Positions 54,300 through 57,870 of a stretch of DNA of 64,000 nucleotides are shown here, one piece after another. Where the stretch lies: positions 1-64,000 of IMG/VR virus record IMGVR_UViG_3300031251_000967; one strand, written 5' to 3'. Within the stretch, counting starts at the first letter, position 1. Every line of letters starts with the position of its first letter. The translations under genes were made by a program, and so were the position numbers. This DNA is from a virus. Under the pieces are notes generated by a model. The model was not told where the DNA came from and searched no databases. It saw nothing but the letters and a program-made list of their open reading frames with translations.

Positions 54300-55130
54300 C
54301 TAGACACCGCAGAATCCTCCGCAAGCGTTGTTGAACATGCTGAGCTGGTCGCGCTTCAGGTGCGGCGGCTTGGGGACGAACTTCACTTCGCTCAACGGCT
54401 TGCGGCTTTCGTGCAGGTACGGCACGGCGCGGAACTCCGTCGATTGGGCGTATGCGGCTTGGAGTTCGAGTTCCTTGGCGGCGGCGTCGGCACGCTCGGC
54501 CGGCGTAAGCTCAAGCCACGCGTCGTCGTCCTTGAAGGGGCAGAAGGTGCAGGCAGATCGCGGCGGCTCCGGATAGCCCCGCTTCTGCATCCAGGCGAAG
54601 CAGTCGGCGCGCGTCATGTCCTGCTCGATCAGCGGCCACCGAGTTTCAATCCAGTCCTTCCTACTAGGAGCCATACGAGATGCTTCGTCGGTGCTGATGC
54701 CGATCCACATCTCGACAAGCGCACCGTGCCTCTTCGTCACCCGCTTCATGCCAAGCAGTTCACGGCACTTGCGCGTGACTGGATCGATCTTAAAATCCTG
54801 CGTGCACTGGCGCTTGCCCAAGCCCTTCGCGAGGCCGTCAAGCGTATAAACGGGAATAGCTGTCTGGACGTATGTCCGTTGGCCGTCCCGTGTGCGTCGT
54901 ACGCGCGTTGCCGACTGCCAGAGATTGCCGCGCGATACCCGATATACCGGGAACGAAAGGACGCTCTCCAGCCAATCCAGATGGCGATACACCTTCTCCG
55001 GCTCGCCCTCAGTGTCTGAGAAGATGGCGCAATCCGGTTTCGGCCCGACCTCGCCATGTTCGGCCATCAAAGCGAGCGTCGTGCTTTGCACGCCCGCCCC
55101 GAGCGATATCGCCCGCAGCCTGACGCTCAT
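54300..55130 (-). CDS. PAPS-reductase-family phage protein
   Basis: SLGAGVQST, DTEGEP, RQCTQDFKI, PRSACTFCPF, CGGFCGV. Confidence 0.85.
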   Translation of the reverse strand: MSVRLRAISLGAGVQSTTLALMAEHGEVGPKPDCAIFSDTEGEPEKVYRHLDWLESVLSFPVYRVSRGNLWQSATRVRRTRDGQRTYVQTAIPVYTLDGLAKGLGKRQCTQDFKIDPVTRKCRELLGMKRVTKRHGALVEMWIGISTDEASRMAPSRKDWIETRWPLIEQDMTRADCFAWMQKRGYPEPPRSACTFCPFKDDDAWLELTPAERADAAAKELELQAAYAQSTEFRAVPYLHESRKPLSEVKFVPKPPHLKRDQLSMFNNACGGFCGV

Positions 55131-55185
55131 GCCGTCCCCCGTCTTTTGCGATCGACGAGGACAAGGGTTTTCCTGGCAGGGGCCA

Positions 55186-56844
55186 TCAGAGCAAAGCCTC
55201 TTGCTGATCGCTGGAGAGCGATTGGAACAGGGGGGAGTCGAGACCTTGCATGCGGTCGAGACGGCGCTTGATATCGGCTACGTACTCGGCTTCCCGCTCG
55301 ATCAGGATCGCGTCGAAACCTTCCCGCATGCAGGCCGCGCCCGTGGTACCGGAGCCGGCGAAGGGATCAAGCACGGTGCCACCCGGCGGGGTGACGAGGC
55401 GCACGAGCCAGCGCATGAGCGCGATCGGCTTTACGGTCGGGTGCTTGCTGTCGCAGCGATCGTCGGCGTCGGCCTTGGCGGAGAAGAAGAAACGGGCGGC
55501 AGAGCCTGTTTCACTCTCAATGGCACCGATGGGCGATCCGGCCGCCGTACTGCCATAACCCGGCGCGCGCACCGTGCCGCCGCGGGTCCCGTGCGTCTGT
55601 CGCTCTCCGAACTGCGCGAAGGCTTCCAGCACCTCGTCAGAGCCGTCGTGGACGAGGTTAGCGGGCCAGCGGCCGAGCGCTTCGCCCGGTCGCTGCTCGG
55701 CAAAGCGTTCGGGAGTCGTGCGATCGGTAATCGTGTGACCGTATTCACCGGGCGTGCCCGAAGGCGCGTAGCCGCGGCGTGCGACGCTCGGGTTCTCGCC
55801 CGCCACCCGGCACGCATCGACGTTCAACGCCCCGGTGCCGTGCAACAGCACGTTCGCAGCAACGGTGCCGTCGAGAGGCTTACGGGCAAGGACGATCGGC
55901 TCCCAGGCGGGCTTTAGGGCGGTTCCTATTCCGTCAGGAACAATCGGTTTGCCGCACCTTCCGCAATCCGGCCATGCTCCGCCATCTTGTGGCTCCGGTT
56001 GTCCGGCCACAGTTCCAGATTGCTCGGATCGTTGTTCAGCGGCTTGTGATCCCCGTGGTGAACCACTTCCACCCGCAGCAACGGACGGCCGATCCGCTTC
56101 GCCATTACTAACCGATGTTCCATCACATAGCCGTCCGCACGCGCCATGCTGATGAACTCCGGCGGGCATCTGACATACCGAACCGAGACATAGTTTCCGT
56201 GTCTCTTCCGGTAGGTTACGCCGCCCTTCCAAGCCCAGTTGGCAGCACCCTTCGGCGGGGGCGGCGCATTGCAGTGCTTCAGCGGATGCGCCTTGTTCCG
56301 GCAGGCACGGGAACAATACCTGCCGCTGCCCGCTCGCAACTGATGAGGCCGCCGATACATCGGCGTCGTGCACAACACGCAAGTTGTATTCGGGCGACGG
56401 TTCGGGGTGCTCACAGTCGCAGATTTTACCATCTAACGCCTTGTTTATGCTATGACTTTTCGGAAATCCGGCACCATAGCACCAAGCCAATTGGTCACGG
56501 ATCTCGAAACCGGCATCCTCGATAGCGCAGGCGAGCCGGTGATAGGTGCGCGTGCCGCTGAAGGCGATCAGATGCGCGCCCGGCTTCAAGACGCGGTAGA
56601 CTTCACGCCACCAGTCAGGATCGAACGCGGTCTCCCCAGTGTCCCATTGCTGGCCCATGAATCCAGCCGATGCCCGCTTGTAGAGGCCGTCCCGGTCCTT
56701 GGCTGGCGCGCTGCCGGGCTTGCCGAAACGCTTCTGGATGCTGACGAGCGAGTACGGCGGATCTGTCACGCATGCGTCTATGCTGCCGTCTGCGAAAGTG
56801 CGCGCGACGTCGCGGCAATCGCCGTGCTCGACGCGAATGTTCAT
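55186..56844 (-). CDS. DNA amino-methyltransferase (N6/N4) with large internal insertion
   Basis: TDPPY, GFPKS, GTALKPAWEPI, HPTVKP, LDPFAGSGTT. Confidence 0.92.
   Translation of the reverse strand: MNIRVEHGDCRDVARTFADGSIDACVTDPPYSLVSIQKRFGKPGSAPAKDRDGLYKRASAGFMGQQWDTGETAFDPDWWREVYRVLKPGAHLIAFSGTRTYHRLACAIEDAGFEIRDQLAWCYGAGFPKSHSINKALDGKICDCEHPEPSPEYNLRVVHDADVSAASSVASGQRQVLFPCLPEQGASAEALQCAAPAEGCCQLGLEGRRNLPEETRKLCLGSVCQMPAGVHQHGACGRLCDGTSVSNGEADRPSVAAGGSGSPRGSQAAEQRSEQSGTVAGQPEPQDGGAWPDCGRCGKPIVPDGIGTALKPAWEPIVLARKPLDGTVAANVLLHGTGALNVDACRVAGENPSVARRGYAPSGTPGEYGHTITDRTTPERFAEQRPGEALGRWPANLVHDGSDEVLEAFAQFGERQTHGTRGGTVRAPGYGSTAAGSPIGAIESETGSAARFFFSAKADADDRCDSKHPTVKPIALMRWLVRLVTPPGGTVLDPFAGSGTTGAACMREGFDAILIEREAEYVADIKRRLDRMQGLDSPLFQSLSSDQQEALL
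55926..56432 (-). CDS. HNH endonuclease nested in +1 frame inside the methyltransferase
   Basis: CVLC...YCSRAC, NWAWKGG, YVMEHRLVMA...EVVHHGDHKPLNNDPSNLEL. Confidence 0.88.
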   Translation of the reverse strand: MVKSATVSTPNRRPNTTCVLCTTPMYRRPHQLRAGSGRYCSRACRNKAHPLKHCNAPPPPKGAANWAWKGGVTYRKRHGNYVSVRYVRCPPEFISMARADGYVMEHRLVMAKRIGRPLLRVEVVHHGDHKPLNNDPSNLELWPDNRSHKMAEHGRIAEGAANRLFLTE

Positions 56845-57317
56845 GTGAGCACCTGCGGCCCTGACATACGGATCTCAAATCCGTAAATTGCTTCGACGAC
56901 GGCGCGACGGAGACGAGACACTGAGTCGTCTATCCCCTTGTGCTCCTCGACCACGAACCGGCCGTTCTTTTCGCGGTAGGTGAAGTCGGCGGTGTAGACG
57001 GCCGTGCGACCGTTCGGATACCGCTCGGAGCGGATGACGACTTGGCGTTCGCCGATCTTCAGGACGAACCGGACTTGGCGGCTGAGGTGGGTGATCTGCC
57101 CTGCCCGCTCCATCAGCTTCAGTTCGCACCAGCGGTCGTACTCGGACTGGCTGTCGAAGCGCACGCCGTCCACGATGACGGGCTTGGCCTTCCACTTCGA
57201 GGGCAAGGGATCGCGCGCCGGCTTCTGTTGCGCGATCTGCTCCGCAAGCAGTTTGGCTGCTACCTGTTCGCGCGCGGCCGGGCCGAGGGAGAGGATGGAG
57301 AATGTGCGCTTCGACAC
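56841..57317 (-). CDS. DUF1064 PD-(D/E)xK nuclease-like protein
   Basis: SKWKAKPVIVDGVRFDSQSE...YTADFTY...VVEEHKG. Confidence 0.85.
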   Translation of the reverse strand: MSKRTFSILSLGPAAREQVAAKLLAEQIAQQKPARDPLPSKWKAKPVIVDGVRFDSQSEYDRWCELKLMERAGQITHLSRQVRFVLKIGERQVVIRSERYPNGRTAVYTADFTYREKNGRFVVEEHKGIDDSVSRLRRAVVEAIYGFEIRMSGPQVLT

Positions 57318-57564: not shown

Positions 57565-57870
57565 TCACGCATCCTCCTGCTCATCGGAGGACAGATCCGG
57601 GATCATCCCCAGAGCCCGCTTGTAGACATCAAGAAGCGCTTCTTCTTCGTCGATTTCGTCGGGATCTTTGCCGCGAAGTGCTATAATGCGCTTCAGGATC
57701 TTGGTATCGAACCCGGAGCCTTTGGCCTCCGAGTAGACTTCCTTGATATCCTCGCTGAGCGCCTTCTTTTCCGCTTCAAGGCGTTCGATCCTCTCCACAA
57801 AGGAGCGGAGTTGATTTGCAGCGACGCCGTCCACGTCATTGCTCGGCAGGGAATCGCTTTGTTCGCTCAT
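57565..57870 (-). CDS. gapR: GapR-like nucleoid-associated protein (DUF2312)
   Basis: [38 protein letters not shown]. Confidence 0.92.

Follow-up and report, generated by a model that had tools for sequence, protein, structure and literature searches.

The 64,000-nucleotide stretch of viral DNA examined here (the window; positions 1 to 64,000 of IMG/VR record IMGVR_UViG_3300031251_000967) carries a DNA methyltransferase gene, or methylase, within which a second gene encoding an HNH endonuclease is nested in the +1 frame, with the methylase frame remaining open throughout the insertion. Our analysis makes it likely that this arrangement represents a mobile HNH cassette that is translated through as part of its host, with a loop purged of stop codons and a probable zinc clasp at its ends. 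In the mechanism that we propose, the HNH homing-endonuclease cassette would occupy the variable loop that follows motif VIII (GFPKS) of a prophage methyltransferase, the nuclease would be translated in the +1 frame from an ATG of its own, and the methylase would be read straight across the same DNA. The insert core of ~135 residues would be a disordered loop, a by-product of an HNH code from which stops have been purged, and the CxC at the start of the cassette and the CxxC at its end would probably bind one zinc and hold the loop ends together, a clasp that could let the methylase fold close without RNA or protein splicing. Hidden HNH insertions in actinophage methylases, to which an initial annotation of the sequence had referred, have indeed been described as the ShiLan domain of the mycobacteriophage methylase gp65 (Arsenault, Gosselin & Gogarten 2025, PMC11855218), and the concept itself is not new.

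Dual coding of methylase and nuclease

Profile searches assign the 552-residue methylase to PF01555 (E 3.6e-28) and phrog_67 (E 4.9e-72), and the features of the PF01555 class are all present, namely motif IV (DPPY, residues 28-31), motif I (FxGxG, here FAGSGTT at residues 495-501) and the profile match itself. The order of these motifs, with DPPY N-terminal and FAGSGTT C-terminal, is that of beta-class enzymes such as CcrM and DpnA, whose structures are distant sequence matches of the window methylase. GFPKS occupies residues 126-130 and GTALKP residues 307-312, with ~170 insert codons between them, and the shortest insert-free relatives pass from GFPKSHN to GTALKPA over 0-10 residues. The initial annotation had counted about 175 extra codons, opening with CDC and closing with CGRC in the host frame; aligned with insert-free relatives, this figure proves right to within ~10 codons, and the host-frame insert can be seen to begin ...GKI-C142-D-C144 and to end W-P-D-C294-G-R-C297-GKPIVPDG (Table 1).

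The +1-frame product bears out the accompanying claim of a complete zinc-finger HNH endonuclease. It matches phrog_20891 (E 1.2e-16) as well as Pfam HNH_3 over residues 106-144 (E 3.9e-5, 23.6 bits, just below the 24.8 cut-off), and it retains every family-invariant residue (C18/C21/C40/C44, H126, H129, N134, N138 and H148). FCS/YacG-type zinc fingers are weak matches of its N-terminal zinc finger. An AlphaFold2 (AF2) model of the protein has a mean predicted local distance difference test score (pLDDT) of 86.9; Foldseek found no significant match of this model in the PDB, and the top structural match from VIA-align was I-HmuI, a weak one (Z 4.9, root-mean-square deviation 4.8 over 79 residues). 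An in-frame TAG stands directly before the HNH ATG, preceded by an AAGG that we infer to act as the ribosome-binding motif for this start; the same AAGGCnTTAG-ATG/GTG arrangement recurs in two relatives (L026 and L070), and the TAG stop of the HNH gene falls within the G-I-G codons at the 3' junction. Together, the TAG directly before the ATG and the AAGG upstream favor internal initiation over a frameshift fusion, and the HNH is probably translated independently in this way.

The methylase frame is kept free of stops by selection and not by chance. Under a null model in which the HNH protein is held fixed and its synonymous codons are redrawn from the host gene's own usage, 5.0 stops would be expected in the methylase frame of the window insert and none is present (P(0) = 0.003), and the third same-strand frame has 9 stops versus 4.4 expected. 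Because long called open reading frames (ORFs) would bias ascertainment, relatives (L loci) were fetched through the HNH protein alone; species genomes supplied 24 of them and viral contigs 80. In 88 of the 90 loci with both methylase flanks, the flanks lie in one frame, always HNH minus 1, and this frame is free of stops over 460-1230 nt at guanine-cytosine (GC) contents of 0.38-0.72, with 4-31 stops in the third frame. Under the null model, ~95 loci each have 0 methylase-frame stops versus 2.3-24 expected, the control frame behaving as expected, and even loci at GC 0.38-0.45, for which 12-24 stops are expected, are open. The initial annotation had proposed that the insertion keeps its host frame open and had named stops in the methylase frame of most homologs as evidence to the contrary; the HNH-ascertained loci, including those of low GC content, are open instead. 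Individual codons carry the same imprint, in that HNH third positions are fixed only where a T would create a methylase-frame TAA or TGA: H148 is CAC in 80 of 80 lineages since K149 (AAR) comes next, with CAC for H129 in 94% and AAC for N133 in 89%.

Which product is selected where can be read from a codon alignment of 53 non-redundant loci whose insert lies at the same site as in the window (site A). The methylase flanks vary mostly at the third position of methylase codons, a sign that the insert-bearing methylases are under purifying selection. Within the insert core (methylase residues ~150-290) it is methylase position 1 that varies, equivalent to HNH position 3, and often there is no variation at HNH positions 1-2; selection thus acts on the core as HNH only, and its host-frame reading is a by-product. 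The initial annotation had suggested structure prediction alongside this per-frame comparison, and the two HNH and methylase models differ accordingly, with the HNH frame well modeled and the host-frame insert core disordered. In the AF2 methylase model, pLDDT exceeds 90 in the enzyme core, drops below 50 with no secondary structure over residues 151-285, and lies at 70-89 in the two cysteine-bearing insert ends (89 for residues 291-300). The insert-bearing methylase is probably active.

Cysteine pairs and mobility of the cassette

The terminal cysteines to which the initial annotation had drawn attention are selected in the host frame, as follows from the zero diversity of C142, C144, C294 and C297 at methylase positions 1-2, where only position 3 varies; their codons coincide with the two ends of the HNH ORF, its head and tail, which are not conserved. 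The two pairs also co-occur: of 55 non-redundant lineages outside the intein group, both pairs are present in 47, a single pair in 3 and no pair in 5 (Fisher p 3.5e-5, without correction for phylogeny). Among the best 120 hits to the methylase (P sequences), the pairs occur in 0 of the 43 insert-free relatives, with a lone Cys in P0078. In L059-L062 and L101, a cassette with CxC and CxxC lies just upstream of GFPKS, near the site of an intein described below, a short duplicate of the host's xAWxYG motif lies on either side of it, and the usual site after GFPKS is empty (in L101, GFPKSHNLDGAWDGWGTALKP). The absence of the pairs from insert-free relatives and their presence at a second site assign them to the cassette and not to the host. 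A zinc ribbon native to the methylase before HNH insertion was considered and rejected, given that insert-free relatives lack the pairs and that the pairs move with the cassette. In P0116 (480 residues) the HNH is mostly deleted, leaving 96 residues between GFPK and ALKP, with both pairs (CLC and CRRC) and the open frame kept; this decayed cassette looks like an element in the degenerating phase of a homing cycle.

These features suggest that the four cysteines probably bind one zinc, pinning the ends of the loop together. The broader proposition, that CxC...CxxC constitutes a portable, cassette-borne zinc clasp and a protein-level alternative to splicing for the colonization of coding sequence, is one that we advance tentatively, as a possibility with slightly less than even chances. 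A literature search did not find a host-frame cysteine clasp, which, unlike the gene layout, is apparently unpublished. At the N-terminal end of many cassettes the first Cys pair leads into a conserved host-frame motif, which reads CxCxxxxLPYxH in, for example, L042, L050, L054, L056, L066 and L101 and CxCGNMEAYE in low-GC members such as L005, L063 and L067; L080 and L089 start with CxxCG.MV.Y.H and have no C-terminal pair. A His may thus serve as an additional or alternative ligand.

As judged from sequence comparisons, the cassette is mobile among methylases. The filled P0001 (618 aa) and the empty P0064 (391 aa), whose junction was compared at the protein level only, have flanks that are 95% and 98% identical, and their few mismatches are crowded next to the junctions, as expected of a conversion tract. 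Empty alleles, the lack of which the initial annotation had counted as evidence against a homing element, do exist. When 56 lineages are compared in pairs, identity in the HNH is nearly uncorrelated with identity in the methylase flanks (Spearman 0.12); L005 and L086 are 84% identical in the HNH and 44% in the methylase, and L015 and L052 are 76% identical in the methylase and 50% in the HNH. It is the filled and empty pair, together with these uncoupled histories, that indicates mobility, and the HNH would be expected to cleave empty alleles.

Relatives of the window HNH are found in two further settings. In L008, L012, L014-L021, L040, L090, L097 and L104 they lie in the +1 frame inside a genuine methylase intein (for example L019:1627-3795), with the layout YG/CLSEDTE...TDQIVSRxHRCLVERGG...(HNH overlap)...VWCxxVxTGAFVARRNGKxFxTGN/SGFPKS, where slashes mark junctions. 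This HNH-hosting intein at YG/SGFPKS is homologous to the ShiLan gp65 intein and occupies the same site, and the gp65 intein has an in-frame LAGLIDADG-like domain where its relatives hold the out-of-frame HNH; the L019 intein is unrecognized by Pfam, and its call rests on alignment to the gp65 intein and on blocks identified by eye. In the viral contigs L087 (L087:2155-3664) and L103, at GC 0.33-0.35, a free-standing HNH splits the methylase at the same place, the HNH of L087 lying at L087:2566-3075 with the N- and C-terminal methylase ORFs in different frames, and in these loci the same kind of invasion has taken its classical shape, that of a 'gene in pieces'. The same HNH core appears to swap among three host adaptors (clasp, intein and none), so the family may capture steps in the association and dissociation of nuclease and intein, and its intein-hosted and gene-splitting members offer a comparative series on how inteins gain and lose nucleases. 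In P0075 and P0095, other methylases of this family, the loop after GFPKS holds an insert of another sort, helix-turn-helix-like, and this loop seems generally open to additional modules.

The source record is a 75.5-kb IMG/VR provirus in which the methylase and HNH genes are single-copy, with no paralogue or empty methylase copy found in that record. In four rhizosphere metagenome runs, contigs over 54800-57200 contained the filled form only, with no joint across the insert, although contigs drop rare variants; no RNA run was found to contain the locus. The neighbors of the methylase are phage early or replication genes encoding a DUF1376 protein, a helix-turn-helix protein, a DUF1064 protein and a GapR-like protein. 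GapR is typical of alphaproteobacteria, and the GapR-like gene hints at an alphaproteobacterial host for the provirus.

Table 1. Coordinates of the methylase, the HNH cassette and associated features in the window.
Feature	Position	Strand	Description
Methylase ORF	55186..56844	minus	beta-class N6/N4 DNA methyltransferase, 552 aa, uninterrupted through the insert
Insert (cassette)	55927..56430	minus	methylase residues ~139-306; each junction +/- ~5 codons; from alignment with insert-free relatives
HNH ORF	55926..56432	minus	168 aa, +1 frame of methylase, start 412 nt past methylase start
Shine-Dalgarno-like AAGG	56439..56442	minus	putative; 6 nt upstream of HNH ATG, inside methylase codons K135-A136; weak motif
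N-terminal pair C142-D-C144 (TGC GAC TGT)	56413..56421	minus	Cys in 52/52 and 51/52 aligned site-A loci
HNH-frame N-terminal zinc finger, C18-x2-C21...C40-x3-C44	56301..56381	minus	(nearly) invariant across 101 family members
Host-frame reading of HNH core, methylase residues 151-285	55990..56394	minus	by-product peptide, predicted disordered
HNH catalytic core H126...H129...N134...N138...H148	55989..56057	minus	invariant alignment columns, HNH_3 match
C-terminal pair C294-G-R-C297 (TGC GGA AGG TGC)	55954..55965	minus	Cys in 40/40 aligned loci; overlaps non-conserved HNH tail
GapR-like DNA-binding protein	57565-57870	minus	PF10073 E 4.8e-34; two genes from methylase

Alternative explanations and implications

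It is scarcely credible that the methylase gene is in effect disrupted and that its frame is open by chance, on account of GC-rich DNA. The insert does have a GC content of 0.61, and alternative frames in such DNA can be long, but the stop counts of the window insert in its methylase and third frames, the open frames of 88 of 90 relatives including those at GC 0.38-0.45, the fixed stop-avoiding third positions and the purifying selection on the flanks all argue to the contrary. Removal of the insert by an unrecognized form of RNA or protein splicing or cleavage, which the open frame and the cysteines (for example as nucleophiles) would then serve, is improbable as well. Such a process would be in keeping with the finding of related cassettes within a genuine intein of this methylase family and with the presence of cysteines at both insert ends, but a search of both strands of 54800-57200 against Rfam gave no family at E<=1 and hence no group I or group II intron match, no Hint/intein Pfam domain was found in the insert, and at the insert end (...PDGI/GTALKP) both a terminal His-Asn and an Asn followed by Cys, Ser or Thr are absent. 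Furthermore, AF2 gives the core no fold, an intron would need no open frame, and lineages free of the cysteines exist. The non-splicing insert of the initial annotation, with no intein C-terminal His-Asn motif, is supported by the lack of any RNA or protein splicing signature in these searches, and the insert is presumably retained in the methylase rather than excised.

About equally unlikely, in our estimation, is that the HNH has been domesticated, so that methylase and nuclease would form a functional pair (restriction-modification-like, or a DNA-binding helper) instead of host and parasite, an idea also raised in section 4.2 of the ShiLan paper (PMC11855218). The arrangement is indeed stable over deep divergence, with filled methylases ~50% identical yet intact, but the cassette is patchily distributed, and filled and empty alleles can be almost identical. 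The histories of HNH and methylase are not coupled, and the cassette is known from two insertion sites, from within an intein and as an independent gene that breaks the methylase in two; the decayed P0116 lost its HNH and kept its open frame. Production of the HNH as a fusion to the N-terminal half of the methylase, through programmed +1 ribosomal frameshifting, is more improbable still: the HNH-frame TAG just before the ATG would confine the shift to the few codons after that stop, and many relatives have an ATG or GTG 10-20 codons ahead of the first zinc-finger Cys, some of them with GGAGG-like motifs. What does speak for a fusion, the weakness of the AAGG motif and the heterogeneity of HNH starts and Shine-Dalgarno-like motifs across the family, also counts against the mobile, translated-through cassette that we favor, as do three further points. 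Seven of 80 lineages have no Cys pair at all and their frame is still open, which indicates that a clasp would help without being obligatory; the co-occurrence and conservation statistics lack phylogenetic correction; and no empty allele close to the window's methylase gene was found.

The mobile, translated-through cassette has consequences beyond the window. Its four end cysteines are a testable device that could explain why an insertion of 170 residues spares the enzyme, and if the clasp is real, it would be a simple natural design for putting long loops into proteins. For annotation, the lesson is that gene callers give the methylase or the HNH and never both; 656 HNH proteins were called in one record set, and the long methylases were called in another.

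Comparison with known systems

Rickettsia palindromic elements, reportedly described by Ogata et al. in 2000, are selfish DNA inserted in frame in protein-coding genes, and the window cassette resembles them as a selfish insertion that is tolerated in the form of a translated extra surface segment. These elements differ in that they are short, non-coding palindromes with neither a nuclease gene nor dual coding. The 'genes in pieces' of Aeh1 nrdA/mobE and the 'fractured genes' (PMC2677866) share with the window an HNH-type selfish gene within a conserved phage gene, whereas the window host ORF is continuous and has no split-intein halves. A closer parallel to overprinting is found in inteins with out-of-frame homing endonucleases, of which an endonuclease VII-like enzyme in frame 3 (bioRxiv 10.1101/2025.01.02.630785) and a cyanobacterial dnaX intein (bioRxiv 10.64898/2026.09.14.751524) were reported in 2025-2026, in both cases with other nuclease types and genes; an out-of-frame HNH in a methylase intein is not among the types in the former (bioRxiv 10.1101/2025.01.02.630785). 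In these inteins, as in the window, a homing nuclease is overprinted on a host segment that must stay open, and relatives of the window HNH sit in this manner inside the YG/SGFPKS intein. The window insert differs in that it has no splicing domain, and its ends are cysteine pairs in place of Hint halves.

Homing endonuclease genes in essential DNA were formerly thought to require an intron, an intein or an intergenic site, and the 2025 ShiLan report (PMC11855218) established a fourth way, in which the insert is translated through: the gp65 insertion is free of stops, hides an HNH in another frame and shows no features of an intron or intein. It had first been noted in 2023, as an insertion left unexplained (PMC9957025). 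A tblastn search with the window HNH recovered ShiLan, Mantra, Starcevich and others at 33-36% identity (E 1e-6 to 3e-9), under methylase genes. The likeness is extensive, as gp65 belongs to the same methylase family and aligns with the window protein including GFPKS and ALKP..EP..ARKP, both insertions are free of host-frame stops and hold a zinc-finger HNH in another frame that ends at the 3' junction, and both combine the lack of an intron or intein signature with a loop predicted to be disordered or looping. The two differ in site, which lies between GFPKS and GTALKP in the window and inside ALKPxxEP..A.KP / EPIVVARKP in ShiLan, and in frame offset, which is +1 in the window and +2 in ShiLan. 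The window HNH also has no second, C-terminal zinc finger, and its host is a GC-rich provirus from rhizosphere metagenomes as opposed to an actinophage. Finally, the window cassette has the host-frame CxC...CxxC, whereas PMC11855218 mentions zinc for the HNH-frame fingers only.

Both kinds of insertion meet in L040:2382-5108 (IMGVR_UViG_3300011116_000364), a single methylase ORF of 908 residues with two hidden HNH genes. The first is intein-hosted and in the +1 frame, and the second (L040:3845-4288) is of the ShiLan type, in the +2 frame at the ShiLan site (ALKPAFEPVIVAQKP/.../EPIVLARKP), and closely resembles its mycobacteriophage counterpart, which shows that the ShiLan type also occurs outside actinophages. 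On these comparisons, the window element is a separate, distantly related lineage of the ShiLan kind and not the same insertion event, and what is new relative to ShiLan is the other site, the other frame offset, the probable cysteine clasp and a very wide distribution. Translated-through insertion is, in this light, no oddity of actinophages, but extends to a large lineage across phyla that is kept by measurable selection.

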